From assembly GCA_964607145.1 (NCBI GenBank), contig CAZSIX010000015.1:3014-67013 (forward strand): a stretch of 64,000 nucleotides of DNA, written 5' to 3'. The stretch's first letter is position 1. Each line of letters begins with the position of its first letter. The translations under genes were made by a program, and so were the position numbers. Of the stretch, positions 9,258-61,792 are shown one piece after another. The notes under the pieces are model-generated. The model ran no database searches. It was given only the letters and a program-made list of their open reading frames with translations, and was not told the origin of the DNA. The stretch comes from an uncultured Planctomycetota bacterium (GTDB lineage Bacteria; Planctomycetota; JAJSAM01; JAKLKS01).

Positions 9258-9386
9258 ACCATGGCGGACACGCGGGACCGCCCTGTCGGGAGCGCGGTCC
9301 CGCTCCGGGAAGTGGCGATCGGCGGGGCCCGGGCTCTCGTGACGCGAGGGCGACCGACGGCCTCGAGGTGATCCGCCCGGGTCGGG

Positions 9387-44143: not shown

Positions 44144-44835
44144 TGGAGACGATTCTCGTCGTGGAGGACGATCCCAGCATCCGGCTGGGGCTCTCCCGCA
44201 ACCTCTCCTTCGAGGGGTTCCGCGTGGTGGTCGCGTCGGACGGGCAGGAGGGGCTGGAGGCGGCGTTCCGGGAGCGGCCCGATCTCGTCCTGGTCGACGT
44301 GATGCTGCCGGGAGCGTCGGGGCTCGAGATCTGCCGCGCGCTCCGGCGCCACGACGCGACGCTCCCCATCCTGATGGTGTCGGCGCGGACGCAGGAACCG
44401 GACCGCGTGCGCGGACTCGAGATCGGAGCCGACGACTACATCACCAAGCCCTTCAGCGTGCGGGAACTGGTGGCCCGTGTCCGCACCGCGCTCCGCCGTC
44501 GCCGCGCCATGGCGGGGGAGGAGGAGCCGTTCCGCTTCGGCGAGTGCGAGGTGGACTTCGCCGCCCGCGTGCTGCGCGTCCGCGGGACCGAGGCGGACTG
44601 CTCCTCCAAGGAGTTCGAACTCCTCCGCTACCTCGTCCGCAACCGGGGGAAGGTGCTCACGCGGGACCAGATCCTGGCCCGCGTCTGGGGGTACGACTAC
44701 GAGGGCACCGCGCGCACCATCGACAACTTCGTGCAGAAGATCCGCCAGAAGATCGAGGACGACCCGGTGAACCCGCGCTGGCTGAAGACCCTGCGCGGCG
44801 TCGGCTATCGCTTCGATCCGGAGAGCGTCGGATGA
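44143..44835 (+). CDS. OmpR-family DNA-binding response regulator
   Basis: TGATG overlap with the kinase stop. Receiver domain (ILVVEDDPSIRLGL...LVLVDVMLPG). Winged-helix output domain (LTRDQILARVWGYDYEGTARTIDNFVQKIRQKI...LKTLRGVGYRF). Confidence 0.9.
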   Translation: METILVVEDDPSIRLGLSRNLSFEGFRVVVASDGQEGLEAAFRERPDLVLVDVMLPGASGLEICRALRRHDATLPILMVSARTQEPDRVRGLEIGADDYITKPFSVRELVARVRTALRRRRAMAGEEEPFRFGECEVDFAARVLRVRGTEADCSSKEFELLRYLVRNRGKVLTRDQILARVWGYDYEGTARTIDNFVQKIRQKIEDDPVNPRWLKTLRGVGYRFDPESVG

Positions 44836-47606
44836 CGACGCGGCGCGCCGTCCGCGGTCTCCCCTCGCTGCTGCTCTTCGCGGCCGCCCTCGCCGCGCCC
44901 GGCGCCGCGGGCGCCGCGGAGGGCGACTCCGCCGACGCCGCCGTGGCGGCGCGGTACCGCGCGCTCCGCCTCGAGCAGGTGCTGGGGGACCTGGAGGGCG
45001 CCGCCGACGCCTGGGCCCGCGCCGCCGCGGCGGCGGATCCCGAACTGCGCGCGGAGGCCCGCCTCCGCGGCGCCGCCGTCCTCGAGCGGCTGGGGCGCAT
45101 GGAGGACGCGCGGGAGATGCTGCGCGCGCTGGTCGCCGACCCGGCGCCTCCCCCCGGCCCGCGGATCGAGGAGGCCCGCCGCAGGCTGGAGGCGCTCACG
45201 CGCGCCGCGGCGCCGGGCACGCGCGTGGACAGCCCCGAGGTGGCGGCCCTCCGCGAGGAGCGCCTCGCCCTGGAGGAGGAGGCGCGCGGGCTCCGCCGCC
45301 GCCTCGACGAGGCGCTCCGCACGACCGCCGACGTCGAGGACCTCCGCATGGAGATCCGCACGCGCGACGCGGACCTCGCGGACCTCCGCGCCCGGCTCCT
45401 CCGCGCGGAGCGCGCCGATCGGGCCGCCGCCGGCGCGGCGACGCCGGGCGAGATCGAGGAGGACCGCCGCCGGGACCGGGAGCAGGCGGTCTACCTCTCC
45501 GCGGAGTACGCGCGCCTCGGCCGGGACTTCCACGCGGCGGGACGGTTCGAGGATGCGCGGCGGCTGCTGCGGGAGGCCGTCGACCTGGACCCGGGCAACG
45601 AGCGCGCCCGCGAACTGCTGGAGCGGGCGACGGCCCCGCTGCCGGAGCGGGAGGGGCTCGCGCGGGGCATCCTCGAACTGCTGGCGCTGGAGCACTCCCT
45701 CCTCGTGGAGCAGGTGCGCGGGGAGGCGGAGGAACTCCTCCGTGCGGGTCGCGACGCCGTGGCCGCCGGGCGCGCCGCGGAGGGGGCCGACCGGTTCGAG
45801 GCGGCCCTCCGCCGGCTGGACGCCCGCCCCGCGGCGCTGGACGCGCTGGACGGGCTGCGCGGGGACCTCGCGCGGAGGTTCGAGGAGGCGAGCCGCGCCG
45901 CGGGGACGCCCCGCGCGGCGCCGGAGCGGCCCGCGGGGGCCGGCGGGGACGCCCGGCTGCCGGAGGCGCTGCGGCAGATCCTCGAGTCCGCCGGCGCGGC
46001 GGGGGAGACCGGGGGCGCCGCGCTCCGCGTCTTCCCCCTCGCCCCCGTGGCCGCGGCGCAGGCGGCCGCGCTCCCGCCCAGCCCCGCTCCCCACCGCCGG
46101 CCCGCGGGGCTCGTGGTCCTCCCCGACGTGCCTCCGGCGGCGGGCGCCTTCCGGGCGGCGATCCGCGGTGCCGTCGAGCCGGAGGCGTGGCGGGCCCCGG
46201 GAGCCGTGCTGGAGTGCGTGGGCGGATCCCTCGTCGCGCGGGCCGGTCCGCGGGCGCTGGCGGCGCTGGAAGCGACCATGGACGCGTCGGGTCGCCCGCC
46301 GCTCCGCTCCGTTCCGCTGGAGATCCTCGTCGTCCCCTGCGCGCCGGAGGCCCTCGCCGCCGCGCTGCGGGATGCGGGTGCCCGCTTCTCGGGGATGGAG
46401 CCGGGATCCGGTGCCGTCGCCGTGGACGCCGGCGCCGTGGCGGTCCTCACGGCCCTGGCGGGGCCCGCGGGGCCGTCCCTGTCCGCCGCCGTGCGCGCCG
46501 CCGAGCGGCGGGGCGCCGTGGTCGCGACGCTCCCGCCGGAGGGCGGCGCGGGCCCGCCGGAGGAGTGCGCGGGCCTGCGCGTGGAAGCGGTCGCGTGGTG
46601 GCTCGGCCCCGGCCGGCTCGCCGCCGGAGCCGTCGTCTCCGCCGCCGTGGAGGCGGTGCCCGGAGTCTCCGCGGCGCTGGGAAGGGCCACGCTCTCGCGC
46701 AGTCGAGCCGCCGGAGGGGGCGACGTCCGGCCCGGGGGCGCGCTCGTGTTCCCCGGGGTCCCCATTCCCGGCGCGGAGCCGGGCTCGCCCCCGCGCCACG
46801 GGGCGGTCCTCGTCGTGGTCGGGGACGTGGCGGCGCCGGTCCCCGCGGCCGTCGCCGGCGAGGGGGCCGCGACCCCCGTGGACCTGGGCGATCTGCCGCG
46901 GCGGGGAGTGGACGCGGCCGGTCCGCTGGCCCCGGCGGGGGAGGACGGCGTGGCGGCGCGCATCGAGGCGCTCCGCGCGTGGCTCCAGATGCGCGCCCCG
47001 GGCGGCACGCGCGTGCGCCTCGCCGGGACCGGGCTCGCGGTGGAGGGGGGCCCGGCGGCGGCGGCCGTGGTGGTCGAGGACCTGGGCCGCCTCGCCGCCG
47101 ACGGGACACCGGTGCCGCTCCTGGTCCGCGTCCACTCCCTGGGTCCCGCGGCGGAGGCCGCCCTGCTGCGGGATCTCCCGCTGCTGTCGCCCTCGGGCGA
47201 GGGGGATCTGCGTTTCGCGGTCCTGCAGGGTCGCGTGCGGGATCGCGTGAGGTTCCTGCTGGCCGGCGACGCGGAGGGGGCGCCGGCGGGCGCTCCCGTC
47301 GCGGCGCTGGCCCAGGCGGCGCAGCGAGCGGTGTTCGCCCGCGTGGAGGAACTGGGGGCCGGGGGCCGGCCCGCCCGCCGCGGCGTCGAAGTCGGCGTGC
47401 GCCCGTGGCCCGGCGATCTGCCCGACGAGCGCTGGATCTGGGCCGACGTCACGCTCCTCCTCGCCGGCGAGGCCGGGCCGCGGCGGGAGCCGCCCGTGAT
47501 GACGGCGATCCGCCGGAACGCGTCCCTGCTGCTGGTGGGCCTCCGCAGTCCCTTCGGCGATCCGGCGCGGACGCGGCTCGTCGTGCTCGTCGAGTGGGGG
47601 TCCTAG
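44832..47606 (+). CDS. Large (924 aa) secreted hypothetical protein, coiled-coil/TPR-like N-region
   Basis: ATGA overlap with the response regulator stop. Signal MTTRRAVRGLPSLLLFAAALAAPGAAGAA. The antisense ORFs 44805..49064 and 45491..47452 are Arg/Pro junk. Confidence 0.6.
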   Translation: MTTRRAVRGLPSLLLFAAALAAPGAAGAAEGDSADAAVAARYRALRLEQVLGDLEGAADAWARAAAAADPELRAEARLRGAAVLERLGRMEDAREMLRALVADPAPPPGPRIEEARRRLEALTRAAAPGTRVDSPEVAALREERLALEEEARGLRRRLDEALRTTADVEDLRMEIRTRDADLADLRARLLRAERADRAAAGAATPGEIEEDRRRDREQAVYLSAEYARLGRDFHAAGRFEDARRLLREAVDLDPGNERARELLERATAPLPEREGLARGILELLALEHSLLVEQVRGEAEELLRAGRDAVAAGRAAEGADRFEAALRRLDARPAALDALDGLRGDLARRFEEASRAAGTPRAAPERPAGAGGDARLPEALRQILESAGAAGETGGAALRVFPLAPVAAAQAAALPPSPAPHRRPAGLVVLPDVPPAAGAFRAAIRGAVEPEAWRAPGAVLECVGGSLVARAGPRALAALEATMDASGRPPLRSVPLEILVVPCAPEALAAALRDAGARFSGMEPGSGAVAVDAGAVAVLTALAGPAGPSLSAAVRAAERRGAVVATLPPEGGAGPPEECAGLRVEAVAWWLGPGRLAAGAVVSAAVEAVPGVSAALGRATLSRSRAAGGGDVRPGGALVFPGVPIPGAEPGSPPRHGAVLVVVGDVAAPVPAAVAGEGAATPVDLGDLPRRGVDAAGPLAPAGEDGVAARIEALRAWLQMRAPGGTRVRLAGTGLAVEGGPAAAAVVVEDLGRLAADGTPVPLLVRVHSLGPAAEAALLRDLPLLSPSGEGDLRFAVLQGRVRDRVRFLLAGDAEGAPAGAPVAALAQAAQRAVFARVEELGAGGRPARRGVEVGVRPWPGDLPDERWIWADVTLLLAGEAGPRREPPVMTAIRRNASLLLVGLRSPFGDPARTRLVVLVEWGS

Positions 47607-48820
47607 CCCTCCACCTCCAGGTCGACGCCGCGGGCGAACCGCTCCACGGCCTTCGCCGCGGCGGCGCCGGCGGCCCGCGCGGGGACGCCCGTGCGCGCCG
47701 CGTCCTCCAGGTGGCGCCGCACGACGCGGAGGCACCCCTCCCGCCGGTGCGCCTTCAGGTCCACCCGGCCCACCAGCCGATCCCCCGCCAGCACGGGGAG
47801 GCAGTAGTAGCCGTACACGCGCTTCGCCGGGGGGACGTAGATCTCGAGCACCTGCCGGAAGCCGAACAGCGCGAGGGCGCGCTCCCGGTCCCAGAGCACG
47901 GGATCGAAGGGGGAGAGCAGCACCGCCCGCTCCGTGGACGGTGCGGCGCGGCGGAGGCGGGTCGCCGTCTCCAGGTCCGCGGGCCGCACCCACCCCGCCG
48001 TACGCACGCCGTCCTCCCCGACGAGGTCGCACGGGAGCACGCGGCCCTCGTCCGCGAGCCGCCGCAGGGCGTCGCGCACGGGCGCGCGGCCCCGGAGCTG
48101 GAACGTCTGCGCCAGCGTCCGCTCCGTGGCCCAGCCGTGCCCGTCCAGCGCGCGATCGAGCAGGACCGCCAGCGCGTCCCCCTTCGCCAGCGGAGCCTCG
48201 CGGAGGGCAGCGGGGATGACCCGCTCCGCCAGGTCGTACACGCGCTGGAAGCCGATGCGCTCCCGGACGGCCAGTTCCCCCGCGAACCAGAGCGCCGAGA
48301 GCACCTGGCGCGCGGGACCGTGGTTCCACATCCCCTCCCGGCGCTCGTCCTCCACGTCCAGCGAGCGCAGCGGGCCGTCGGCGCGGACGCGGGCGAGGAT
48401 CTCCCGGGCCAGCGCCTCGTGGCGGCCCACGACGTCCCCCCACCAGGGGTGACGCCGGAACGCGAGGCGGCGGAACTCGAAGGCGGGATACAGGTCCAGC
48501 GGGATCCACGACGCCGCGTGCCCCCAGTACTCGAAGAGCGGCGCGCCGGGCTTGAGCAGATCCTCGGCCACCGCCATCTCCAGCCCGTCCAGCCGGGAGT
48601 GGAGCACCATGGCGTGGCTGCGCGCCCCCGTGACCGTGATGGTGTCCAGTTGCAGGTAGCCGAAGCGACCGACGACGGCGTGGCACGCCCGCCGTTGCGC
48701 CCCCTCCCCCCGCCCCGCCGACCGCGGCAACCCGCCCCCGCGCCCGGGCCAGAGCCCCGCCCGGAACAGCGCCAGCCGCCGCGCGCCCGTGACGTCGATG
48801 GACTCCCGCGCCGGCGTGGA
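47603..48820 (-). CDS. Winged-helix DNA glycosylase, YcaQ family (DUF1006)
   Basis: Aligns in my reading with E. coli YcaQ across several blocks: FQRVYDL, LSPFDPVLWDRERALALFGF...YVPPAKRVYGYYCLPVL...LVGRVDLKAHR. GTG at 48820 with GGGAG SD. 405 aa, matching the size of YcaQ. Confidence 0.7.
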   Translation of the reverse strand, partial: STPARESIDVTGARRLALFRAGLWPGRGGGLPRSAGRGEGAQRRACHAVVGRFGYLQLDTITVTGARSHAMVLHSRLDGLEMAVAEDLLKPGAPLFEYWGHAASWIPLDLYPAFEFRRLAFRRHPWWGDVVGRHEALAREILARVRADGPLRSLDVEDERREGMWNHGPARQVLSALWFAGELAVRERIGFQRVYDLAERVIPAALREAPLAKGDALAVLLDRALDGHGWATERTLAQTFQLRGRAPVRDALRRLADEGRVLPCDLVGEDGVRTAGWVRPADLETATRLRRAAPSTERAVLLSPFDPVLWDRERALALFGFRQVLEIYVPPAKRVYGYYCLPVLAGDRLVGRVDLKAHRREGCLRVVRRHLEDAARTGVPARAAGAAAAKAVERFARGVDLEVEG

Positions 48821-49090
48821 GCCCGCGCGACCGCGCCCTCCGGCGCGCACGACTCCCGCCTTCCGCTGCCGCCCCTTCGCCACTGCGCTGCCCCCCCGGT
48901 TCGTCGCGGTCGCCGCCCTCCGTCGCCGCGACGGCGCGGCCCATTGTCCCGGACCGCGCGCTCCCGTGCCCAAGGCCGGCCGAGGGTCGGGGAGGGGGTA
49001 CACGCCCTCGCCCGTACTGTCCGGACCGGCGACACGAAGCGGAAGTCGCGCTCGACGACGGCACGCCGGACCCGGGGACAGCGGGTCGCG

Positions 49091-49191
49091 GGACGGGCGC
49101 GGATCGGGCCGCCGGCGGATAGGATGCCCCCGTCGCGAGGACGCGGCCCTGGGTCCCCGTAGCTCAGTAGGATAGAGCGGCTGGTTCCTAA
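49091..49191 (+). repeat. Left inverted repeat: copy of the tRNA-Arg 5' flank (about 62 bp) plus tRNA nucleotides 1-39 (acceptor stem to anticodon loop), truncated after TTCCTAA
   Basis: Sequence ...gccgccggcggataggatgcccccgtcgcgaggacgcggccctgg-GTCCCCGTAGCTCAGTAGGATAGAGCGGCTGGTTCCTAA is the reverse complement of 51901-52001, with about 2 mismatches over 101 bp. Confidence 0.85.
49153..49191 (+). pseudogene. Truncated tRNA-Arg(CCT) 5' half (39 nt), non-functional
   Basis: Identical to nt 1-39 of the intact tRNA at 51863..51939. The downstream sequence (ggcggggg...) cannot pair to close the anticodon stem. Confidence 0.8.
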
Positions 49192-49449
49192 GGCGGGGGT
49201 CGGGTCGAAAGGCTCCCGCGGGCGCGTTCCAACCTCGCCACGACGCGCCACTTGCGGCGCCCCCCGTAGAGCGGCACTTTCCGTTGTGGACCTCAGGTCC
49301 GCAGGAGGTGTCCACGGTTGCTCGTTGCGCTCTGTCGTTGATGGGGGGAGGACGAGTGACGGTGGAGTTGCTCGAAGGACGCGCGAAGCCTCCTACCGCC
49401 CGTAGACTTCACTCCGATCGCTGTAGGCGGCCTGCACAGGAGGGACCCC

Positions 49450-50247
49450 ATGGTCTCCGAGCTCCTCTGTCTCCAGATTGCGAGATGCCTCCATGGTCGC
49501 ACCTCCGTGTTCAGTCGGACGTTCAACCTGGAGGACAACGCGCCGCCGAAGACCGAGCGGTCGGAGGAGAAGAACTCGCTGACGGAAGCAAGCCTGATCA
49601 GGCCCCTCCTCGCGGAGCACGATCTGGCCGACATCGAAGCAGCCATTCGATGGCTTCAACTGGGAGAGTACCTCGGGCGCACGCAGTGGGGACTCGGGGG
49701 CCCTTGGGTACACGTGCTCACCCCGAAGGGGGTCGAGCTATGTGAGCGGGGAGGATTCCCCGAGCAGGAACGACGGCTCTTCTATCACGAGGAGCCTCAC
49801 CAGGTCTTCCTGGCGCACCAGTTTCGATCCGAGGACGAAGGCCTGGAGAGCGCTCTACGAGCGACGCTCTCAGATGCGGGGTACGTCGTCGTGGATGGCC
49901 AGGTCGATGGCCTCGAGCAGTTCCGCCAAGCGATCTTCGCGAAGATCAAGAGGTCACGGTTCTTCGTTTGTCTGCTGACCCAACGCGCGAGGCTTGAGGC
50001 TGGGGGGGCGGTATCGAGCGTCTGGCTCTACCAGGAGATCGGAGCCGCTGTGGCGTTGAAGAAGTCACCGTTGCTCTTCGTCGAAGACGGGATGGACCCT
50101 CACTTCGCCGGAGAGTTGCAGAAGACGTATGAGTACGTTCCGTTCACTCGAGGATCCGCAAGCCCGCAGTGGTGCAAAGCCGTGTCACGACTCAACACTG
50201 ATCTTGCTCGCGAGGGGATCCCCTTGCCCAAGGGCAAGGCCGAGTAG
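49450..50247 (+). CDS. TIR-domain protein (N-terminal unknown domain of about 110 aa + C-terminal TIR-like domain with conserved glutamate)
   Basis: SD CAGGAGGGACCCC before ATG. TIR-like blocks: QVFLAHQFRSEDEG (betaA), LRATLSDAGYVVVDGQ, IFAKIKRSRFFVCLLTQ, and SSVWLYQEIGAAVA (W..E motif with the putative catalytic E). Lower GC than the flanks. Confidence 0.7.
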   Translation: MVSELLCLQIARCLHGRTSVFSRTFNLEDNAPPKTERSEEKNSLTEASLIRPLLAEHDLADIEAAIRWLQLGEYLGRTQWGLGGPWVHVLTPKGVELCERGGFPEQERRLFYHEEPHQVFLAHQFRSEDEGLESALRATLSDAGYVVVDGQVDGLEQFRQAIFAKIKRSRFFVCLLTQRARLEAGGAVSSVWLYQEIGAAVALKKSPLLFVEDGMDPHFAGELQKTYEYVPFTRGSASPQWCKAVSRLNTDLAREGIPLPKGKAE

Positions 50248-50281
50248 CGAACCTCTCACGTCCTCAGGAGATGTGCGCCTC

Positions 50282-51274
50282 CTATTCCTCCTCCGCCCTG
50301 AGTCGCCGCCAGTGCTCCTCGTTGTCCATGAACGGCCTTCCGAGGTCGATGTTCCCAAGGTTCGCTGAGGCGAGTCGATGGAGTACGCGTGCGCCATCTC
50401 GCACGAACAGCCCCAGCCTCTCGGCGAGAACCTGAAAGGTCGGCGTCGACCCGCCCTTCTTCCCAAGAAGCGAGGCGATGTGCTCGCGGTCGGCGGCTCG
50501 GTCGACGTTCTCGATGTTGCTGAACACGGCCTCCATCACGGTGGCGGCACTGACACGATCGCCTCTGCGCCGCACGTTCTTTGGGGCAAACGGCAGGAGA
50601 GTCATGATCTCCTGGTCGAGAGCGTCATCGTCGAGCCAGCCCGGGGGCGTCGGCGTGAACAGGTTGAAGTCCTCTCCGACAACGGGCATCGTCGTTCCGC
50701 GCTGCCACGGGCGGTTGGAGTGGACAACGAACCGGTTGCGATAGAAGCGCATGTTGTAGTGGAGCCAGAGCATGTGGCCCCGACAGTCAGTCCAGAGGTC
50801 GTTGAGGATCTTGGTCCGCCCTGCTTCGAACTCCAGGAGGAGTTCCACGAAGGGGTGCTTCTTCTTCCACGCCGCCGGCTCGATGCACATCGCTTGGAGA
50901 GCGACCTGATCCAGCAGCACACCGCCGAAAACGTAGAGAGACTCGAGGTCCAGCTGCATGAGCCCCGTGAGTGAGTGCTGCTCGCGGAGCGCCTTCTGTA
51001 CCTCCTCAGGATAGGGAGTTCCTCTGGGCCACTCCGCGCGGCGCGTCGCGGAGGTGAGCGCCGCGAGTTCGTTCAATCGCTCTCTGCCGCGGTAGAGGCG
51101 ACCGAGGATCTTCCTGCAGTCGCCAAGCCGTGCGAGCGCGTGGCCGCTGTGATGGAAGAACCCGTACGGTCCGGCCGGGGGCTTCAGACCTTCGAGGACG
51201 GTCTTGCTGAGTCGATGCAGGGCCGCCTCTGCATCGCCGAACAGCTTCTTCATCTCGTCGGGTGGGATGGCCAT
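50282..51274 (-). CDS. Hypothetical protein (330 aa), unknown function, in the TIR cassette
   Basis: SD GGGAGA 5 nt before ATG 51274. Non-repetitive, balanced composition in a lower-GC segment. No recognisable motif. Confidence 0.6.
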   Translation of the reverse strand: MAIPPDEMKKLFGDAEAALHRLSKTVLEGLKPPAGPYGFFHHSGHALARLGDCRKILGRLYRGRERLNELAALTSATRRAEWPRGTPYPEEVQKALREQHSLTGLMQLDLESLYVFGGVLLDQVALQAMCIEPAAWKKKHPFVELLLEFEAGRTKILNDLWTDCRGHMLWLHYNMRFYRNRFVVHSNRPWQRGTTMPVVGEDFNLFTPTPPGWLDDDALDQEIMTLLPFAPKNVRRRGDRVSAATVMEAVFSNIENVDRAADREHIASLLGKKGGSTPTFQVLAERLGLFVRDGARVLHRLASANLGNIDLGRPFMDNEEHWRRLRAEEE

Positions 51275-51295
51275 CCAATCTCCCGCTCTGCCGAT

Positions 51296-51826
51296 TCACT
51301 GCGTGCGCACGGGTACGACGCCGACTCCACCGCCGCCCTTGCTCTGGAACCGCGCGACCAGAGCCCTTTCCATCTCAGGCTTGGTCTCGACGTCTGCGAA
51401 GAAGGCTCTCGATGCCTGAACGAGTGCGGCGAACAGGTCCTCTGCGTTCAGGAGTGTCTGTCCGGTCCCCTGGTCAACCTTCAGGTGCTGGTGCCCATTG
51501 TGGTGGGTGAGAAGGAACCCGCGCGGTGAGAAGGCATGCACGAGACCGTTTCGGAGATCGTAGAGGGCGCTGGCGTGGCCGTGGTACTCGCTCGGAAAGT
51601 ACTCGCGGACAAATGCCGTGAACCGGTTCTCCACGCCCTTCACCTTCTTCGATCCTTCGTAGCGGTAGCCCGCGAGCGCGTCGACTCCCGTGACCATGCA
51701 GACGAAGGACAGGAACGCGCTGTCGTTGTTGATCATCGGGGCGATCCCGCCGAGGTACCACTGGCCGAAGTACTGGCGGACTGCTGCGGACTCCTCAGTC
51801 ACGGCGTTCCCTCCGATCCTCCCCAT
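51296..51826 (-). CDS. Hypothetical protein (168-176 aa), unknown function, first gene of a two-gene operon in the TIR cassette
   Basis: ATG at 51826 lacks an SD. An internal GTG at 51802 is preceded by GGAGGG at 6 nt spacing and is the more likely start. The stop is 21 nt before the next gene start. Confidence 0.55.
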   Translation of the reverse strand: MGRIGGNAVTEESAAVRQYFGQWYLGGIAPMINNDSAFLSFVCMVTGVDALAGYRYEGSKKVKGVENRFTAFVREYFPSEYHGHASALYDLRNGLVHAFSPRGFLLTHHNGHQHLKVDQGTGQTLLNAEDLFAALVQASRAFFADVETKPEMERALVARFQSKGGGGVGVVPVRTQ

Positions 51827-51862
51827 CGATGGAGCGAGCAGGCGAGGACGGGGGAGCGGGGC

Positions 51863-51939
51863 TGGTATCCCCGGCAGGAGTCGAACCTGCGACCTGCTGG
51901 TTAGGAACCAGCCGCTCTATCCTACTGAGCTACGGGGAC
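51863..51939 (-). tRNA. tRNA-Arg (anticodon CCT), 77 nt with encoded CCA
   Basis: Folded by hand: acceptor GTCCCCG/CGGGGAT (G1-U wobble), D arm GCTC-AGTAGGATA-GAGC, anticodon arm GCTGG-TTCCTAA-CCAGC, variable AGGTC, T arm GCAGG-TTCGACT-CCTGC, discriminator A, CCA. Confidence 0.85.
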
Positions 51940-52001
51940 CCAGGGCCGCGTCCTCGCGACGGGGGCATCCTATCCGCCGGCGGCCGGATCCCCGCCCGTC
52001 C
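51901..52001 (-). repeat. Right inverted repeat (5' half of the intact tRNA-Arg plus its upstream flank); partner of 49091..49191
   Basis: Reverse complement of the left repeat. Overlaps the last 30 nt or so of the integrase gene. Confidence 0.85.
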
Positions 52002-53304
52002 CGCGAGGCTCCGCGCCCGGGGCCGGCGCGCCGTAGTCGAGCGCGACGAGGCTCGCGCGCGTCCGGCTGTCCACCATCCTTGCGTAGATCTGCGTCGTCG
52101 AGAGGTCGGCGTGCCCGAGCACGCCCTGCAGGTCGGTCACCGCGGCGCCGCCCTCGAGGAAGTGCACGGCGAACGTGTGCCGGAGCGAGTGGAACGTGAG
52201 CCCCCGCCGTCCGTCGAGCCCGGCCCTCCTGAGCGCGCGCCCGAAGGCCCGCCGCACGGTGACCCACGGCCGCCCGTACCCGGAGAGGAAGATGGGCTCC
52301 GCGTCGGGGATCTCGCGCCTCTCCTTCTCGGCCCGCGCCGCCCGGGTGCGGAGAAGTTCCTCGGCGAGCCGCGGGTGGAGCGGGATCCGCGACGCGTTCC
52401 CGACCTTCGGCCGGAAGAGCGAGAGCGTCCCCGTCCCGAAGTTCACGTCGCCCCAGGTGAGCCGCAGCAGTTCCCCGAGCCGCGCGCCGGTGTAGAGCCC
52501 CGCGGCGACGAGCGGCCGGAGCGCCGGGCCCGTAGCATCGAGGAGCCGGAGCGCTTCCTCCTTCGCGAGCGCGACTCGGGGCTGACGGACCTCGCGGGCC
52601 TTCGTGACGCGGGCGATGGGGTTCTCGCGGAGACGTCCGAGCCGCACGAGGCGGTTGAACGAGGCCCCGAGGACCATCAGCGCCCGGTTCACGGTCGCGT
52701 TGGAGCAGGCCCTCGCGACCTCCCTCACCTCGGGGTGGTCCACACGCCCGGGGCGACGGACGGTCTTCCACGAGCGCTCGATGCGCCACGCGCGGAAGGC
52801 CTCGATGTCGGCCGGCGTCACCGCTTCCGCGGGGAGCCCGGCGAGCGCGCTCCGAGCGATGGTGCTCCGGTGGCCGGCGTAGCCCTCGACAGTGCTCGCA
52901 CAGCGACCCGAGACCCGGCGCGAGTCGATGTACTCGTCGATGGCGTCGAGGACGGAGAACACGCGCGGGGCGCCGTCAGCGGACGGCGCGCCCCCTACGT
53001 TCCCCTCCCGCAGGCCCGCGGCGGAGTGCCCGCCGCCACCGGGCGCGAGGACGGACGGGGGAGGCTCGTATCGCCCCGCGAGGAGCGCCTTGCGCACCTC
53101 GGCCAGGAGGGCCTCCGCCTGGCGCCTGGACGGGACCGCGCGGACGATCTCGCGGACACGGCCGTTGGGCGCGCGGCGACGCTCGGGGTCCGGGTAGCGC
53201 ACGTACCACGAGGACTTCGAGGTGGGTTTGCGGTAGACGCGGCCGAAGAGCCGCCGCCGCCGGCGGCCGCCGGCCCCGTCCGGGGAGTCAGGCGCGGTGT
53301 CCAT
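51970..53304 (-). CDS. Tyrosine-type site-specific recombinase / phage integrase
   Basis: Catalytic region motifs: ARLGELLRLTWGDV, HSLRHTFAVHFL, GHADLSTTQIYAR (R..H..R..Y). ATG at 53304 (MDTAPDSP...FGRVYRKPTSKSSWYVRY); in-frame ATGs at 53346 and 53367 are alternatives. The upstream 214 aa of the ORF is junk. Confidence 0.85.
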   Translation of the reverse strand: MDTAPDSPDGAGGRRRRRLFGRVYRKPTSKSSWYVRYPDPERRRAPNGRVREIVRAVPSRRQAEALLAEVRKALLAGRYEPPPSVLAPGGGGHSAAGLREGNVGGAPSADGAPRVFSVLDAIDEYIDSRRVSGRCASTVEGYAGHRSTIARSALAGLPAEAVTPADIEAFRAWRIERSWKTVRRPGRVDHPEVREVARACSNATVNRALMVLGASFNRLVRLGRLRENPIARVTKAREVRQPRVALAKEEALRLLDATGPALRPLVAAGLYTGARLGELLRLTWGDVNFGTGTLSLFRPKVGNASRIPLHPRLAEELLRTRAARAEKERREIPDAEPIFLSGYGRPWVTVRRAFGRALRRAGLDGRRGLTFHSLRHTFAVHFLEGGAAVTDLQGVLGHADLSTTQIYARMVDSRTRASLVALDYGAPAPGAEPRGTGGDPAAGG

Positions 53305-53366
53305 GACCGCATGAGGGCGAGGGAGGGCGAGCACCTCAAGGGCCATCGCGCCGGCGGCGGCGGCCA

Positions 53367-53660
53367 TCACGGCGCGCGCCGGAGGACCCGGGCCCGGAGG
53401 GCGTCCACGTCCACCGACGGGCGGCCACGGGGGACGGGCGGCGCCGCGTGCCGATAGTGCAGGGCCGCCACGAACGCCTCCAGGCCGTCGCGCCGCACGA
53501 GCAGACGCCCCCGCCGCGACCCGACTGTCGCCACTCGGATGGACGGGATGCTCCCGTCCGCGAGGAGCGAGTACAGCATCGTCCGACCGACGGGGAGGAG
53601 CGCGAGGGCCTGCGCGACAGAGAGGAGATCCCCCGGTCGGAGGGCGGCGCCGGCGTTCAT
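53367..53660 (-). CDS. Excisionase-like / AlpA-type helix-turn-helix DNA-binding protein
   Basis: LLSVAQALALLPVGRTMLYSLLADGSIPSIRVAT...RRGRLLVRRDGLEAFV resembles HTH_17/Xis. ATG at 53660 (cat 53658-53660). Confidence 0.65.
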   Translation of the reverse strand: MNAGAALRPGDLLSVAQALALLPVGRTMLYSLLADGSIPSIRVATVGSRRGRLLVRRDGLEAFVAALHYRHAAPPVPRGRPSVDVDALRARVLRRAP

Positions 53661-54067
53661 CGCCCGGGAACGCTCGCTGCGCAGACGAACCCGTGCGCGA
53701 CGGCCAGCGCCCGCGGCGCGGCACACACGGGGCCGTGGGGGTGGTGTGCCACGACGACCCCGCAGCGGATGCACCGGACGCCGAGGTCGTCGCCCTCGAC
53801 CAGGCCGAACCGCGCGAGGGCCCTCCGGCGGGCACGCGTGCGGGCGGTCGCGGCGGCGCGGATCTCGTCGAAGGGAGTCGTGTCGATGGGCTCGGCGCGG
53901 CCGCCCGGTCGGGGCGACGCGACGGGCAGCGGAAGCCCCGCCTCAACGTGCAGGTACACGACCACGCGGCGCCGCTGCTCGCGCGTCGTCCGTGGCGGCG
54001 CGTAGCCGAGCCGCAGGAGGTCGAGGATCCTCCGTCGCTGCTCGCGTGTCGGGCCCATGGCGCGCAT
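53657..54067 (-). CDS. Hypothetical protein (136 aa) with Cys/His cluster
   Basis: TAATG overlap with the upstream gene (verified). CxxC...HHPHGPVC near the C-terminus. The stop abuts the excisionase start. Confidence 0.45.
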   Translation of the reverse strand: MRAMGPTREQRRRILDLLRLGYAPPRTTREQRRRVVVYLHVEAGLPLPVASPRPGGRAEPIDTTPFDEIRAAATARTRARRRALARFGLVEGDDLGVRCIRCGVVVAHHPHGPVCAAPRALAVAHGFVCAASVPGR

Positions 54068-54759
54068 TACCGCGACCTCGGCCGGCCCTCGCGGTCGTAC
54101 TCGACGAGGACGATGGGGCGCGGGTCGCCCTTCGTGGCCGCGATGGCCGCGGCTACTCGCGAGAGCGCCTCCGCGATCTGCTCGTCCGTCGGCTCGGCGA
54201 CGAGCGCGAGCGGCTCGATGGCCGCCTTCGCGACCTCGATGTCGCGGTGGAGAGCGTCGATGCCCGCCTGGTTGCTCCCCGCGCGGCGAACCCAGGACTC
54301 CGTCCCGTTCCACGAGGTCTCCCGCTCGCTCCGCGTCCGGCGGAGCCCGCCGGCGAGGGACGGCCACGCGCGGTGGACGTCGTCCGCCTCCTCGATGGCG
54401 GCGAGCAGGCGCGGGTCGGCGGAGCGGCGGAGGGCGAATTCGGCTCCGCCCAGTCCGTTCCGGACGGAGGAGTCCTCGTGGAACGCCGCCGAGCGGGCGT
54501 CGGACAGCGCGTCCCGCGCCGCGCGCAGCGCCGCCTGTGCCTCCGCGACGACGACCTCGCGCGCCGCCACGCGCTCGCGAAGCCCGGGCAGCACGTCGCG
54601 GCGGCGCCGGAGGAGCGCCTCGCGCTGCGTGGCGAGGTCCCGCCGCGCCTGCACCGCCGCCTCCTTCGCGGCTGCCGCGGCCTCCGCCTCGGCGAGGAAC
54701 CGCTCGCCCGCCGGCGTGCGGAGGAACGTCTCCAGCCGGTTCGTCCCGTTCGTCGTCAT
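54067..54759 (-). CDS. Hypothetical coiled-coil protein (230 aa)
   Basis: SD GGAGGAG 7 nt before ATG 54759 (verified). The N-terminal 136 aa of the ORF is junk. Confidence 0.55.
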   Translation of the reverse strand: MTTNGTNRLETFLRTPAGERFLAEAEAAAAAKEAAVQARRDLATQREALLRRRRDVLPGLRERVAAREVVVAEAQAALRAARDALSDARSAAFHEDSSVRNGLGGAEFALRRSADPRLLAAIEEADDVHRAWPSLAGGLRRTRSERETSWNGTESWVRRAGSNQAGIDALHRDIEVAKAAIEPLALVAEPTDEQIAEALSRVAAAIAATKGDPRPIVLVEYDREGRPRSR

Positions 54760-54869
54760 CGTGCACTCCTCCAGGGGCCCCGGGTCACTCGCGCCGGTGC
54801 GGGCCCGCGCACCGGCCTCCCTCCGCGCGAGGTTCGCGCGTCGCGGAGGCTCGATCCAGCGGTGCCGCG

Positions 54870-55241
54870 TCACGGGCGCGGCCCCGCGGAGCGCCGGAGT
54901 TCCTCGCCCCTTCGGCGATGGGCCTCGCGCTGCGCGGCGGTGAGGCCCGACCAGGCGGCGTTCAGGTCGCAGGCGCGGACCCAGGCTCGCGCGCGGTCCC
55001 ACCGGCGGCGCGCGTACTCCCGTCGGCGCCGGCAGGGAACGCCGCAGTACCGCCGGGACCGCCGGCCGCGCGCCGATGGCGCCCCGAGCGGCGCCCCGCA
55101 CGCCGCACACGCCGGGACCGCGCTTGTCTCCACCGGCCCCCCCTCCCCTTGTTCCGCCGGCGCGCACGCGGGCTTGCGCGCCCGGTCCCGGGGCCGAGAC
55201 CGGTCACGAACGACCTCCCCCCGGGGCTCCGGCCGCTTCAT
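54870..55241 (-). CDS. Small basic zinc-ribbon protein (CxxC...CxxC); tentative
   Basis: ATGA overlap with the primase-helicase stop. PACAACGAPL...RRYCGVPCRRRREYARRRW. High Arg content makes this uncertain. Confidence 0.35.
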   Translation of the reverse strand: MKRPEPRGEVVRDRSRPRDRARKPACAPAEQGEGGPVETSAVPACAACGAPLGAPSARGRRSRRYCGVPCRRRREYARRRWDRARAWVRACDLNAAWSGLTAAQREAHRRRGEELRRSAGPRP

Positions 55242-57382
55242 CCGCCGCACCCGGTCATGCGGGGCTCCTCGTCCGCCGTCGGCCCGGCCGCCGCCGTCCC
55301 GGCGAACAGGATTTCCTCCCATCCCCTCCGCGAGGGACGGGAGACCCGCCCCTCCGCTCCGCCCGTGTCCTCCCGTCCCTCTTCGAGGGAGGGACGGGAG
55401 GACGGGACTCCCGTCCCGGGGTCCGGGGACGGGACCGGGACGGGCGGGACGAGTTCACCGCTCGCGACCGCGTAGCGGTAGGGGCTCCCGGGCTTGCCGG
55501 TGCCCGTGCGGACGATGGCGCCCCGGGAGAGGAGGGCCTTGAGCGCGCGGGCGGTGCACTCCCGCTTGCCGCCGATGCCGGCGCAGACCTCGTCACGGGT
55601 CGCGGGTTCGCGCGTGGCGCGCAGGTGGTCGAGCGTGCGCTCCGAGGCCGCGGCCGCACGCACCTCCGCGGCCCCGCCCTGGCGGAGGACGCTCGCGCCG
55701 CGTAGTTCGAGAATCTGCTCGTCGAGCGGGGTCTCCCGGAACCGGCTGTACGCCTGGAGCGACCGGAACGTGTCCGACGGCATCTCCTTCGCCCGCCGGA
55801 GTTCCAGGACGACATCCATCGCGCCCGCGATGGCGGACGACCCGCGCGCCCCCTGGCCCTCCTCGGCGTCGGACTTGCGCAGGTGGTGGATGAGGAGCAC
55901 CGCCAGGTCCTCCCCGGCCGCGTCGAGCACGGCCCCGAGGGCGTCCTGCATCGCACCCGCGTCCTTCTCCGCGTCGCGCCCGAAGCGCCCCCACGCGGTG
56001 AGCGTGTCGATGCAGAGGAGCACCGCGCGGATGCGGCGGGCCTCGCGCACGCCCTCGAGGAGGAAGTCGCGGAGGGAGAACTCTGGGTGCATCTCGCGGC
56101 GGGTGAGGAAGCGGGTGTCGCGGAGGCCGAAGCGCGATGCCTTCTCGTGGATGGTGGCCGGCCCCTCCTCCGAGAGGACGACCGCCGGCCCCGCCGCCGT
56201 CGCGAACCCGGCGAACGGCTCGCCGCGCTCGAGGGCGCGGAGGATGGCGAACACGAACGTCGACTTGCCGGCCTTCGGATGGCCCGACAGCAGCGTCACC
56301 GCTCCGCGCGCGAGGAGGCCCTCGACGATCCACGGGACTCCCTCCGCAGCCTCCTCCGCGAGGTCCTCCACGCCGCGCCAGCGGAGAAGGCCCGGGGCGT
56401 CGCGGACGGCGCTCGCGAGCGCATCGCGGCGACCGGCGCGGAGCGCGTCCGCGACGTCCTTCGCCCCGTCGAGGTCGGCGAGGACGGCGTCCCATTCGAG
56501 GAGGCGAACGGCGGCCCCGGCGGCGCGGAGATCGCGTGTGGCGCGCTCCATGCCCTCGGCCCCGGCGCGGTCGTCGTGGAGCGCGAGGACCACGTCGCGG
56601 CCGCGGAGGGCGCGGGACCACTCCGCGTCGAACCGGAGCGCCCCCGGGAGGGCCAAGCGGACGTGGTCCCGGGCGACGTCCGCCGCGACGACGGCGAGGA
56701 GGTCGTGGCCACCCTCGAGCAGCAGGACCGGCGCGTCGGGCTCCCGCGCGAGCCGGACCACCTCGCCGAGGACGCCGCCGCGGGAACCGGGGAGGTCCTC
56801 CTCCTTCGAGTGCCGCCCAGGGCGGACCTTGGCGCCAACGACCCCGCCGGCCGGCGCGAACAGCGGGAGGACGAGGCGCGCGGGTTCGCCGCGCTCGTCG
56901 GGGAGCACGCCGCCGCCGATGGCGGCGAGCGCCTCGGGAGTCCCGTCGTACCGGGCGAGGAGGTCCCGGACATCGGCGTCATCCCGGCGATCCCGAAAGT
57001 AGATGCGCGCGTCCTCGACGACCTGCTGGAACCGGCCGGGCGCCTGGGCCGGTTCCGGCTGCAGCTCCGGGGCGCCGAAGTACCTCCGCTCCAGTTCCGC
57101 GGCGGCGGCGGCCGATCCGTCGAGCCCGCGGACCTCGACGGCCAGCGCGAGGAGCCCTCCCGCACCGAACCCGCAGACCCGGCACTCGGCCGACGCGCCG
57201 TCCTTCGCGACGACGAGGGAGGGGTGGCGGTCGCCGTTGCGGTGGCGCTCGCCCCGGGGGCAGCGAACCGCCGCGCCCGGGCGGGGGGCGTCGCGAAGGC
57301 CGATGAGCTCCCCAAGGACCCTGGGCGCGAGGCCCGCGTCTCGGAGCCGATCCACGACGCTCGGCCAGGCGCGGGGGCTCAC
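55238..57382 (-). CDS. Replication primase-helicase fusion: CHC2-like zinc finger + Toprim primase domain + AAA_25/RepA-like (RecA-fold) ATPase
   Basis: GTG at 57382 with GGAGGAG SD. Zn-finger CPRGERHRNGDRHPSLVV...CRVCGFG. Toprim-like VLLLEGGHDLLAV...VVLALHDDRAGAEG. Walker A LLSGHPKAGKSTF, Walker B AVLLCIDTL, and LAVLLIHHLRKSD. Confidence 0.75.
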   Translation of the reverse strand: MSPRAWPSVVDRLRDAGLAPRVLGELIGLRDAPRPGAAVRCPRGERHRNGDRHPSLVVAKDGASAECRVCGFGAGGLLALAVEVRGLDGSAAAAAELERRYFGAPELQPEPAQAPGRFQQVVEDARIYFRDRRDDADVRDLLARYDGTPEALAAIGGGVLPDERGEPARLVLPLFAPAGGVVGAKVRPGRHSKEEDLPGSRGGVLGEVVRLAREPDAPVLLLEGGHDLLAVVAADVARDHVRLALPGALRFDAEWSRALRGRDVVLALHDDRAGAEGMERATRDLRAAGAAVRLLEWDAVLADLDGAKDVADALRAGRRDALASAVRDAPGLLRWRGVEDLAEEAAEGVPWIVEGLLARGAVTLLSGHPKAGKSTFVFAILRALERGEPFAGFATAAGPAVVLSEEGPATIHEKASRFGLRDTRFLTRREMHPEFSLRDFLLEGVREARRIRAVLLCIDTLTAWGRFGRDAEKDAGAMQDALGAVLDAAGEDLAVLLIHHLRKSDAEEGQGARGSSAIAGAMDVVLELRRAKEMPSDTFRSLQAYSRFRETPLDEQILELRGASVLRQGGAAEVRAAAASERTLDHLRATREPATRDEVCAGIGGKRECTARALKALLSRGAIVRTGTGKPGSPYRYAVASGELVPPVPVPSPDPGTGVPSSRPSLEEGREDTGGAEGRVSRPSRRGWEEILFAGTAAAGPTADEEPRMTGCGG

Positions 57383-57576
57383 GACCTCTCCTCCCCGACG
57401 CCCTCGACCTGCACGGTGGCGACGGGAACTCCCCGCTCGTTCGCCTGGAGCCAGGTGCAGCCGTTCTCGTGGGCCAGCTGCACCCCTCGCACGGCACCGG
57501 CCCGGACCCGCGCCCGAGTGGTCGCCCCGCACCCCGGGCACCGGACCACCGCGACCGACTCGTCCCTGTCCGCCAT
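57379..57576 (-). CDS. Small zinc-ribbon protein (65 aa), first gene of the integrase-primase operon
   Basis: SD GAGGAGG 4 nt before ATG 57576 (verified). RCPGCGATT...NGCTW. The stop abuts the primase GTG. Confidence 0.6.
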   Translation of the reverse strand: MADRDESVAVVRCPGCGATTRARVRAGAVRGVQLAHENGCTWLQANERGVPVATVQVEGVGEERS

Positions 57577-57807
57577 CGAGCCTCCTCAGCCGATCGCCCC
57601 CGCACGGCTCCGTCGAGGCTCTGCCCTCACGGAGGCTCGTGCAACCTGTGCGACGGTCTCGAGCGTCGGTCACCGGGAGCGTCGTTCAACACCCGGAGCT
57701 GATCGGGCGTCCTGCTCCGTCAGACTCCGGCAACCCACCCGGGGCGGCGGCTTGCGTCGGTTACCTTCTGGCGTTCTCTCGTGGGATGGACCATCAGGGC
57801 GAACGAG

Positions 57808-60642: not shown

Positions 60643-60729
60643 TCGAGGCCGATAAAGGGGTACTCTCGACAACCAGATTACCCCTTTACAGCTGGCCCTT
60701 GCCCGGATAGGCTACGCCCCCGAACGGCC

Positions 60730-61788
60730 ATGCACTCCCTCACACCCGCCTACCTCGACCGCCTCTCCTTCTCTGCGGAGGAGGCCGCCGCTCTGTCCGC
60801 CCTGATGGAGATGCGCGGGCGCCAGGAGCTCTTCGTCAACCAGAAGCCCGAGGTACTGGAGTCCCTGCGCCAAGTCGCCATCATCGAGTCCACGGAGTCG
60901 AGCAACCGCATCGAGGGCATCTCGGCGCCCCGGGACCGGATCGAGGCCATCGTCCTCCGCCCCACGGAGCATCGGAACCGCTCCGAGCAGGAGATCGCCG
61001 GCTACCGGGACGCGCTCGCCCTCATCCACGAGTCCCACGAGCACATGCCGCTCACGGTGAACGTGCTCCTGCAGATCCACCAGATGCTCTACCGCTACCA
61101 CCCCGGTCCCGGGGGGCGGTTCAAGCTCGCGGACAACCGCATCGACCACTACGACGGGAAGGGGAACCTCGTCCGTGTCCGATTCCGTCCCACTCCGGCA
61201 TTCGAGACCCCGGCCGCCATGGATGCGCTCGTCGCGGGGTATCAGGATGCGAACGGCGCCCGGGCGCTGCACCCGCTGGTCGCGGTCCCCCTCACGATCC
61301 TGGACCTGCTCTGCATCCACCCGTTCACGGACGGGAACGGCCGCGTCGCGCGTCTGGCGACGCTCCTGCTCCTCTACCACCACGGGTTCGCGCTCGGGCG
61401 CTACATCAGCCTCGAGCGCATCGTGGAGGAATCGAAAGAGGGATACTACGAGACGCTCGAGGCCAGTTCGAAGGGCTGGCACGAGGGGAAGCACGACGTC
61501 CACCCGTGGCTGAACTACTTCTGGGGCGCGCTGACGCGGGCGGGCCGCGAGTTCGAGGAGCGGGTGGGAAAGGTCGCCGACGCCCCGGGGACCAAGAGCG
61601 AGATGATCCGCGCCGCGGTGATGCGTAGGATCGGCCCGTTCTCCAGTGCGGCGATCGAGAAGGACTGCCCCGGCGTGAGCCACGAGCTTGTTAGGCGCGT
61701 TCTGCGTTCCATGAGAGACGAAGGGATCATCGCGGTTCAAGGACGTGGGCGCGGGGCCAAGTGGCTGCGGTCTGCAGAATCGAGGTGA
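60730..61788 (+). CDS. Fic family protein (Fic/DOC AMPylation-type motif) with C-terminal winged-helix
   Basis: Canonical Fic motif HPFTDGNGRVARL. ATG at 60730. Confidence 0.85.
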   Translation: MHSLTPAYLDRLSFSAEEAAALSALMEMRGRQELFVNQKPEVLESLRQVAIIESTESSNRIEGISAPRDRIEAIVLRPTEHRNRSEQEIAGYRDALALIHESHEHMPLTVNVLLQIHQMLYRYHPGPGGRFKLADNRIDHYDGKGNLVRVRFRPTPAFETPAAMDALVAGYQDANGARALHPLVAVPLTILDLLCIHPFTDGNGRVARLATLLLLYHHGFALGRYISLERIVEESKEGYYETLEASSKGWHEGKHDVHPWLNYFWGALTRAGREFEERVGKVADAPGTKSEMIRAAVMRRIGPFSSAAIEKDCPGVSHELVRRVLRSMRDEGIIAVQGRGRGAKWLRSAESR

Positions 61789-61792
61789 CACG

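Follow-up and report, generated by a model that had tools for sequence, protein, structure and literature searches.

The window analysed here is a stretch of 64,000 nucleotides (nt) from an uncultured Planctomycetota bacterium (GenBank assembly GCA_964607145.1, contig CAZSIX010000015.1, positions 3,014 to 67,013). It is drawn from a metagenome contig of 74,106 bp, ∼10 kb of which lies beyond it. The only transfer RNA (tRNA) gene in the window, as detected by ARAGORN, is an intact tRNA-Arg(CCT) on the minus strand (51863–51939; Rfam tRNA score 69.3 bits), and this gene takes part in a long inverted repeat that encloses a cassette of three genes. From left to right the locus has (i) a host-type gene for an AlkZ/YcaQ-like DNA glycosylase (47603–48850, minus strand; Pfam PF06224, E = 1.5e-50; 100% identical to the 415-amino-acid (aa) protein P0069), whose start is separated by 176 nt from the left arm of the repeat, (ii) the left arm, which ends in a truncated copy of the tRNA gene, (iii) the cassette, (iv) the intact tRNA gene, whose first part is the inner end of the right arm, and (v) a tyrosine integrase gene, followed by the core and further cargo of an integrative element. 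Related loci and proteins are referred to by L and P numbers.

The inverted repeat

Nucleotides 1–39 of the tRNA-Arg gene have exactly two occurrences in the window, at 51901–51939 on the minus strand and at 49153–49191 on the plus strand, with none expected from shuffled sequences; the 3′ half of the gene occurs once. A preliminary description of the locus had reported an inverted repeat with two mismatches over 49091–49191. The ungapped alignment confirms these mismatches (at 49100 and 49106) and makes the repeat longer than claimed, not shorter: 49045–49191 (plus) and 51901–52047 (minus) are 92.5% complementary over 147 nt, with 11 differences that include a 9-nt divergent block, and a repeat search returns arms of 158 nt (49045–49202 and 51890–52047, 90% complementary, with 2687 nt between them). 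Over the inner 105 bp the arms reach 98% identity, and their innermost 85 nt (49107–49191) are an exact core, while the similarity of the left arm to the integrase at the protein level extends outwards to 49027.

The identity of the arms ends exactly behind the anticodon loop, TTCCTAA, as had been stated. The duplicated part therefore spans the 5′ strand of the acceptor stem, the D arm, the 5′ strand of the anticodon stem and the entire anticodon loop. To the right of the loop the half-sites bear no resemblance to each other, with GGCGG at the left junction against CCAGC in the tRNA.

Because the arms differ at 11 positions they are two distinct genomic copies, and a fold-back artefact is ruled out. 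The segment between them has a guanine-plus-cytosine (GC) content of 60–66%, against 74–80% on either side, and its reading frames point inwards; both observations agree with the earlier account of a 2.7-kb low-GC cassette with inward-reading units. A different kind of assembly problem has to be weighed, as the contig is metagenomic and its organism uncultured: whether the middle segment points one way or the other might not be fixable from the assembly graph alone, or the low-GC cassette might have been joined from another genome via a conserved tRNA. The 85-nt exact inverted core, a cassette GC ∼13 points off that of the flanks, and an identical tRNA in at least three different assemblies would all be compatible with such an error. 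Against it, the arm differences require two real loci, and both ends of the cassette are unique junctions, the join of tRNA 5′ half, spacer, integrase tail and non-tRNA DNA being specific to this element lineage. Every path through the junctions yields an inverted pair, so only the orientation could be wrong, and the element carries cargo of matching GC on its other side. An assembly problem is very unlikely to account for the locus.

Composition of the arms

The outer part of the right arm (51940–52047, minus) consists of a 30-nt spacer and the last 26 codons of the tyrosine integrase gene (51970–53367, minus; 465 aa; stop codon 51970–51972; Pfam Phage_integrase PF00589, E = 1.4e-23; 100% identical to P0001). 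The integrase stop thus lies 30 nt upstream of the tRNA 5′ end, which places an integrase at one end of an element beside an intact tRNA gene, as Islander expects. The gene directly adjoins the right arm, which bears out the connection with a tyrosine integrase that had been proposed from the position of the truncation. Membership of the tyrosine recombinases is supported by the R-K-H-R-H/W-Y catalytic residues: R296, K321, H393, R396, H419 and Y428 are invariant in a family alignment of 21 sequences.

The left arm has the same build. Its outer part (49027–49122, plus) is a remnant of the integrase 3′ end, the last 31 codons, running to ...VALDDGTPDPGTAGRGTGADRAAGG and a stop TAG at 49120–49122; tblastn of P0001 residues 435–465 against 49027–49119 gives 58% identity (E = 7.6e-5), and there is no integrase sequence upstream of the remnant. 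A copy of the spacer between integrase stop and tRNA follows (49120–49152, plus, identical to 51940–51972, minus), with a −10-like TAGGAT overlapping the stop, and the exact tRNA-Arg(CCT) nt 1–39 (49153–49191, plus) form the inner end. The preliminary description had called the non-tRNA part of the repeat a promoter flank. A flank from upstream of the tRNA is indeed present in both arms, but it is mainly the last 26–31 codons of the integrase and the 30-nt spacer, in other words an element-borne attachment (att) arm.

Integrases upstream of tRNA genes

The closest integrases (69–80% identical) come from Planctomycetota-type metagenome assemblies. The order excisionase (xis), integrase (int), tRNA is common to seven independent loci in other assemblies, L055 having only an integrase-tail remnant, and the tRNA lies 30–160 nt past the integrase stop, on the same strand, in every close relative for which there is DNA. 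The close relatives (∼70% identical) use one of two tRNA genes: a tRNA-Arg(CCT) identical to that of the window in L001/L005 and L167, or a tRNA-Gly(CCC) in L002–L004/L012, L083, L084/L169 and L168. A single base separates the two anticodon loops (TTCCTAA in Arg, TTCCCAA in Gly), in keeping with a switch of target among close relatives. In L001 (contig JAKLKS010000001.1) element genes are found on the integrase side only, with host efflux genes past the tRNA, and xis-int-tRNA is the sole part that it shares with the window. More distant relatives of the integrase (35–47% identical) have the usual layout, in which the tRNA 3′ end faces the integrase, and a search of IMG/VR retrieved only distant ones (at most 32% identical).

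The window and the seven loci make up a coherent Planctomycetota-type integrase subfamily inserting 5′ of tRNA genes, a mode described as rare in bacteria; att sites in the 5′ half, with the tRNA expressed from the promoter of the element, are known from pTN3 in archaea and "seldom" from bacteria (PMC8371274). Elements of this subfamily evidently sit 5′ of the tRNA and would supply its upstream region, and the copy cut at the anticodon loop indicates that they also supply the 5′ half, as in pTN3-like elements that target the 5′ half; which strand of which partner was exchanged is something we infer. The duplication of the 5′ part had been described as unusual. Since the 5′ part is the normal target side in this subfamily, a duplication there is expected, and the oddity lies in the inverted orientation alone.

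The arms match each other (92–98%) far better than they match the corresponding stretch of L001 or L167, and for this reason both must come from one element lineage. A hexamer at the integrase stop is shared more widely. TAGRAT, starting with the stop TAG itself, is found in both arms of the window (49120–49125 and 51967–51972, as TAGGAT) and as TAGAAT in L001 (11357–11362), L167 (941–946) and L084 (2035–2040), with TACAAT in L083. It is a possible −10 box for the tRNA, in which case coding sequence and tRNA promoter would overlap. At L055 (10001–10403) a 62-residue C-terminal integrase remnant (69% identical) stands before a tRNA-Met gene and the rest of the integrase is lost, which suggests that the tail was kept because the tRNA-Met depends on sequences inside it.

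Several of the related loci have features of their own. An 18-nt site in L083 (569–586, CTCCCAAGGCGAATGTCG) matches the anticodon loop, 3′ stem strand and variable loop of its tRNA-Gly with 2 mismatches; it has the orientation of a direct repeat and is situated in an intergenic gap of 1.2 kb, 9.6 kb upstream of the tRNA. The site is a candidate for the distal junction of a compact element 9.6 kb long; no tRNA 5′ half can be recognised next to it. In L002 (7219–10297) the tRNA-Gly(CCC) stands between two different integrases, the subfamily member on its 5′ side and a convergent PF00589 integrase (9053–10297) on its 3′ side, and one tRNA gene may here serve two elements at two sublocations. The contigs of L002, L003 and L004, which measure 117–195 kb and belong to different assemblies, share one end point, located 7.2 kb upstream of the integrase, and this hints at a repeat or a variable junction.

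The left junction

Past the left junction is a vestigial stretch that resembles a tRNA 3′ half with a broken anticodon stem (49192–49226, plus). The Rfam tRNA model aligns end to end over 49153–49226 with 6 of 7 acceptor pairs, at 14.1 bits (threshold 29). The similarity of these 35 nt to the 3′ halves of tRNA-Gly is marginal (shuffle fraction 0.02–0.06), and assigning the first 28 nt to either half of a tRNA-Gly or to the 3′ half of a tRNA-Arg gave marginal or negative results. An element-borne arm would be expected to carry a vestigial 3′ part, and this stretch may be one.

The DNA that follows, on the minus strand at 49220–49370, is the decayed promoter and ∼110-nt leader of the sister elements at tRNA-Gly(CCC). 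In blastn comparisons it is 83% identical over 81 nt to L083 and 80% to L002–L004 and L012, and the leader is also present in L084. The alignment runs through the −10 region up to the first 7 nt of the tRNA-Gly, and in the sister elements (L083, L084 and L002) the leader occupies the gap from the integrase stop to the tRNA-Gly. The remnant in the window points at the left arm, so that two element-borne arms stand head to head. At least two element types have thus left remains at the locus, one of the Arg type and one of the Gly type represented by its decayed promoter-leader, which shows that both have used it.

A hairpin in the leader, GCGGACCTSAGGTCCGC, is kept in all copies (L083 10044–10064, L084 2080–2100, window about 49285–49305). 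The leader has no match in Rfam, the tRNA-Arg being the only Rfam match in the region.

A probable rearranged pair of attachment junctions

On balance we take the locus to be a rearranged, inverted pair of att junctions at a repeatedly used integration hot spot, placed around defence-type cargo. The arms would be two copies of one element-borne att arm, made up of the 3′ end of the integrase gene, a spacer that may contain the tRNA promoter, and the 5′ half of tRNA-Arg up to the anticodon loop, and their owner an integrative element with a primase/helicase-xis-int core and defence-type cargo. The right arm together with the tRNA 3′ half would form the integrase-proximal working junction, attR-like, at which the tRNA is intact; the left arm, fused to non-tRNA DNA, would be an attL/attP-like junction in inverted orientation. 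Most likely this is a rearrangement scar rather than a proven genetic switch, with the cassette as accessory cargo. A scar of an unusual integration or inversion was one of the options offered in the preliminary description and is the best-fitting of them; its interpretation as a whole is partly supported.

The pair is read as rearranged because normal insertion junctions are direct repeats at the ends of an element, whereas here the second copy is downstream, inverted and 2.7 kb away. Classical tRNA islands and prophages (Williams 2002; Islander, PMC4383910; TIGER, PMC7192596) are similar in having a tyrosine integrase at one end, a tRNA rebuilt by a fragment from the element, a displaced fragment that marks the junction, and tandem arrays and hybrids at hot spots. 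Most of them, however, replace the 3′ part, keep the host promoter and leave fragments as direct repeats. In the window the 5′ part is replaced and the fragment is both downstream and inverted, features that Islander filters out: a 5′ fragment is legitimate upstream in the orientation of the tRNA, and fragments downstream or in opposite orientation are rejected (PMC4383910). The fragment at 49153–49191 lies downstream of the tRNA 3′ end, on the plus strand where the tRNA is on the minus strand. No direct repeat of the tRNA-Arg 3′ end, of the kind a classical 3′-side island around the cassette would leave, is present in the window. Comparable rearranged junctions are probably under-reported, since island finders such as Islander discard inverted att pairs by rule.

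The simplest route that could be constructed has two steps, their order and the single inversion both being part of what we infer. An element would first have inserted in the normal way beside AlkZ, into a tRNA gene that by then owed its 5′ side to a sibling element, a kind of leftover exemplified by L055. A single inversion would then have turned the rest of the cargo, the core and the tRNA relative to attL and the three cargo genes. This route would explain why low-GC cargo lies on both sides of a high-GC core. In GC and 4-mer make-up the cassette correlates better with the cargo at 57.7–64 kb (r = 0.88) than with host or core DNA (0.73–0.76). The seven independent related loci, compared as had been proposed earlier, have no inverted tRNA fragment.

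A number of points weigh against a rearranged att pair of this kind. One breakpoint of the inversion would have to fall, by coincidence, no more than ∼36 nt from the tRNA 3′ end, and the other would be outside the window. The tRNA-Arg 5′ half does not occur a third time up to 64 kb, and the other end of the element is likewise outside. The left arm may be the element's own attL or a sibling leftover. The contact between an Arg-type left arm and a Gly-type leader could not be derived from a single known reaction, the 35 nt past the junction are left unexplained, and the integrase-side arm and the DNA past the junction share no more arm-type motifs than shuffled sequences do. In the relatives, distal att copies are absent within 10 kb, and none has a canonical distal junction with a well-kept 5′ half. 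The searched collections contain neither an empty site nor a syntenic host relative, the nearest AlkZ homolog being 65% identical.

Possible inversion of the segment

The preliminary description proposed that flipping 49192–51900 would rebuild an intact tRNA on the left, and on paper this holds. In the contig the AlkZ side carries GGCGGGGG and the integrase side CCAGCAGG; in the flipped state the AlkZ side would read CCAGCAGG and the integrase side GGCGGGGG. Since the arms resemble attL and attR in inverted orientation, recombination by Int (assisted by Xis) might in principle turn the cassette around rather than excise it. An active invertible segment, in which recombination between the anticodon loops of the arms by Int, alone or together with Xis, keeps both orientations present in the population as a programmed switch of the defence-type genes or as a side reaction, gains from the exact 85-nt inverted core, which ends at a classical overlap region of tyrosine integrases (PMC8371274). 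The adjoining integrase is intact with all catalytic residues and has a xis gene beside it, and the 98% identity of the inner 105 bp is consistent with continued exchange or conversion.

There is a precedent in the Thermococcales, where chromosomal inversions are bordered by oppositely oriented tRNA genes (PMC5495485, PMC8371274) and Int-pTN3 inverts DNA between inverted tRNA att sites, its minimal site being tRNA-Leu 2–44 (PMC5495485). Elements of the pTN3 type (Cossu et al. 2017, PMC5495485; PMC8371274) also have the tRNA 5′ half as att site and express the rebuilt tRNA from the element side. For pTN3 inversion is a known activity of the integrase; for the integrase of the window it is a possible one. 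The archaeal integrases differ in being of the SSV-type "suicidal" kind, with attP inside the gene, which is split on insertion. The host of the window is bacterial, the integrase gene is whole (465 aa) with only its last codons in the arm and the junction 69 nt past its stop, and a xis gene is present.

Other observations speak against an active flip. Exact-protein look-ups of cassette genes 1 and 2 and of the integrase found no sister contigs on record and no orientation variant. DNA pattern scans of viral and metagenome collections, with spacer plus tRNA 5′ half, truncated tRNA-Arg and Gly-type leader, likewise retrieved no variant and a single further locus, the Gly-type L084. The arrangement is missing from the seven related loci, the half-site GGCGG at the left junction is unlike the CCAGC of the tRNA, and each gene unit would stay behind the same kind of arm, with no obvious on/off effect.

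Invertible switches such as fim, Hin/Gin, the Bacteroides invertons and the hsdS shufflons have repeats of 9–30 bp, and a flip changes the connection between promoter and gene or between gene fragments. The window resembles them in having a segment between inverted repeats with a site-specific recombinase gene adjoining. Its arms, however, are att copies of 147 bp, and a flip would keep the pairing of gene units and arms. To judge by the anatomy, cassette genes 3 and 2 would stay behind the full tRNA, the 3′ half of which moves with them, and gene 1 behind the truncated copy; no connection of promoter and gene would be rewired, and only the far upstream context (integrase or AlkZ intergenic region) would alter. 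A purpose-built switch is therefore disfavoured, because the arrangement is absent from the seven loci, the left half-site is unlike that of the tRNA and the gene-arm pairing is kept. The invertible segment of the preliminary description, taken as a programmed switch, is not supported: no orientation variants were retrieved. We regard active inversion in any form as unlikely.

A working two-state device, in which the 2.7-kb defence-gene segment alternates through Int and Xis between two states, attL/attR with the tRNA rebuilt beside the integrase gene and attB/attP with it rebuilt beside AlkZ, is quite unlikely. If it existed, it might serve to assemble a split element ahead of excision, as in the integrative and conjugative element (ICE) ICE3, or give a 5′-side tRNA element a means of holding, shuffling or handing over small cargo at a tRNA with two att sites. 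Even less should be expected of a split (bipartite) element, which we consider barely probable. Here the element would have entered at the tRNA-Arg 3′ end via a second att site and integrase, and its own attP would then have recombined, in inverted orientation, with the anticodon loop of the same tRNA, turning a 2.7-kb end; if Int and Xis reversed this turn, the element would be whole again ahead of excision. Such a history would be in keeping with a cassette that starts exactly at the tRNA 3′ end, resembles in composition the cargo on the other side of the core, and after a flip would lie with core, integrase and junction on one contiguous attP-type map. It would also have a parallel in the tRNA-Gly of L002, flanked by two different integrases, and a precedent in ICE3 (PMC5882170). 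It requires more components than are seen: the window, with ∼10 kb of contig outside it, contains neither a further integrase nor a repeated tRNA 3′ end, and no relative has such a layout.

The tripartite ICEs (ICE3 of Mesorhizobium; Haskett et al. 2018, PMC5882170) are similar in that att sites recombine within the chromosome and "excisive" reactions rearrange DNA rather than excise it, under the control of recombination directionality factors. They differ in having three integrases and three att pairs, in extending over hundreds of kb and in having a demonstrated function; the window has one integrase and one inverted pair, known from their sequence. Returning to the rearranged junction pair, its meaning depends on the integrase. 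If the integrase can flip the segment, the locus would be a bacterial counterpart of the integrase-driven inversion between tRNA sites in the Thermococcales; if it cannot, the locus would be an ordinary rearrangement scar at an integration hot spot with defence-type genes.

Cassette genes and their possible expression

The cassette has 64% GC and three open reading frames (ORFs) with a coding-type pattern of GC at third codon positions, reading inwards from both ends. Gene 1 (49450–50247, plus) encodes a protein of 265 aa with a TIR-like C-terminal domain, for which the match to Pfam TIR_2 (E = 1.4e-4) is below the curated cut-off; its family is small, with 21 relatives at E ≤ 1e-30, and the C-terminal domain is also found in multidomain proteins with weak TIR_2 matches. 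Gene 2 (50282–51274, minus; 330 aa) is HEPN AbiU2-like by the UniRef name of its homolog P0219 ("HEPN AbiU2-like domain-containing protein") and contains RNRFVVH. Gene 3 (51296–51826, minus; 176 aa) starts 36 nt past the tRNA 3′ end on the same strand and has, by eye, an Rx4H motif, RNGLVH.

PADLOC, NCBIfam and PHROGs gave no match for the cassette proteins, and genes 2 and 3 have none in Pfam either; no described defence system is recognised by PADLOC in genes 1–3. A conserved three-gene system was rejected, the neighbours of the gene 2 homolog at L165 (restriction, methylase, HNH and HD genes) being unrelated to genes 1 or 3. Two genes that follow the tRNA-Gly in L083 encode proteins of 265 and 176 aa, the lengths of genes 1 and 3; they show no similarity to these, and the equal lengths are coincidental. 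The cassette is a group of separate defence-type genes, not a described system.

Cis-mobilisable elements (CIMEs) of streptococcal ICEs are integrase-less remnants with direct att sites that can be mobilised by accretion. The cassette is like a CIME in being short, integrase-less cargo between att-type junctions of a neighbouring element family; its junctions, in contrast, are inverted and not direct.

Of the two gene units, gene 1 on the plus strand and genes 3 and 2 on the minus strand (50282–51826), each begins a short way inside its arm and is directed inwards. The earlier suggestion of promoter capture holds that the left arm was kept since its copy of the tRNA-upstream region drives gene 1, while the promoter of the intact tRNA drives genes 3 and 2; it is compatible with the other readings. 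It is in line with the position of the two units and with the lack of a terminator-like site in either gap, from the tRNA to gene 3 and from the arm to gene 1 (the one such site inside gene 3 is within chance). The TAGRAT/TACAAT hexamer, conserved in the right arm and four relatives, is the sole sign of a promoter, and L055 keeps its integrase tail before the tRNA-Met after losing the rest. A promoter scan of the region, on the other hand, detected no sigma-70-type site, and 258 nt of decayed foreign sequence lie between the left arm and gene 1. The tests lend promoter capture no support, and we hold it to be rather improbable.

Element core, cargo and surroundings

Upstream of the integrase is an excisionase-like gene of HTH_17 type (53367–53774, minus, as the maximal ORF; conserved part 53460–53660). 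Its tblastx identity to the corresponding HTH_17 genes is 75% in L001 and 73% in L083, and a gene of this kind also precedes int in L168. The core of the element (54067–57685, minus) encodes a conserved 378-aa protein and an 815-aa primase/helicase (AAA_25, Pfam E = 7.4e-21; PHROG primase/helicase families), with tblastx similarity to L083 and L002; both genes are co-directional with xis and int.

At 57.7 kb the GC content drops from 77% in the core to 64–68% in what looks like defence-type cargo of the element (57703–63292, plus), identified by Pfam as type I restriction HsdR, Fic and an AAA_21 ATPase and reaching the window end. No M or S subunit gene adjoins the HsdR gene within the window; the Fic and AAA_21 ATPase genes then follow.

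To the left of AlkZ, the GC content at 45800–46100 rises to as much as 86% inside a long TPR-containing ORF (44544–47606), which is unusually high even for this genome.

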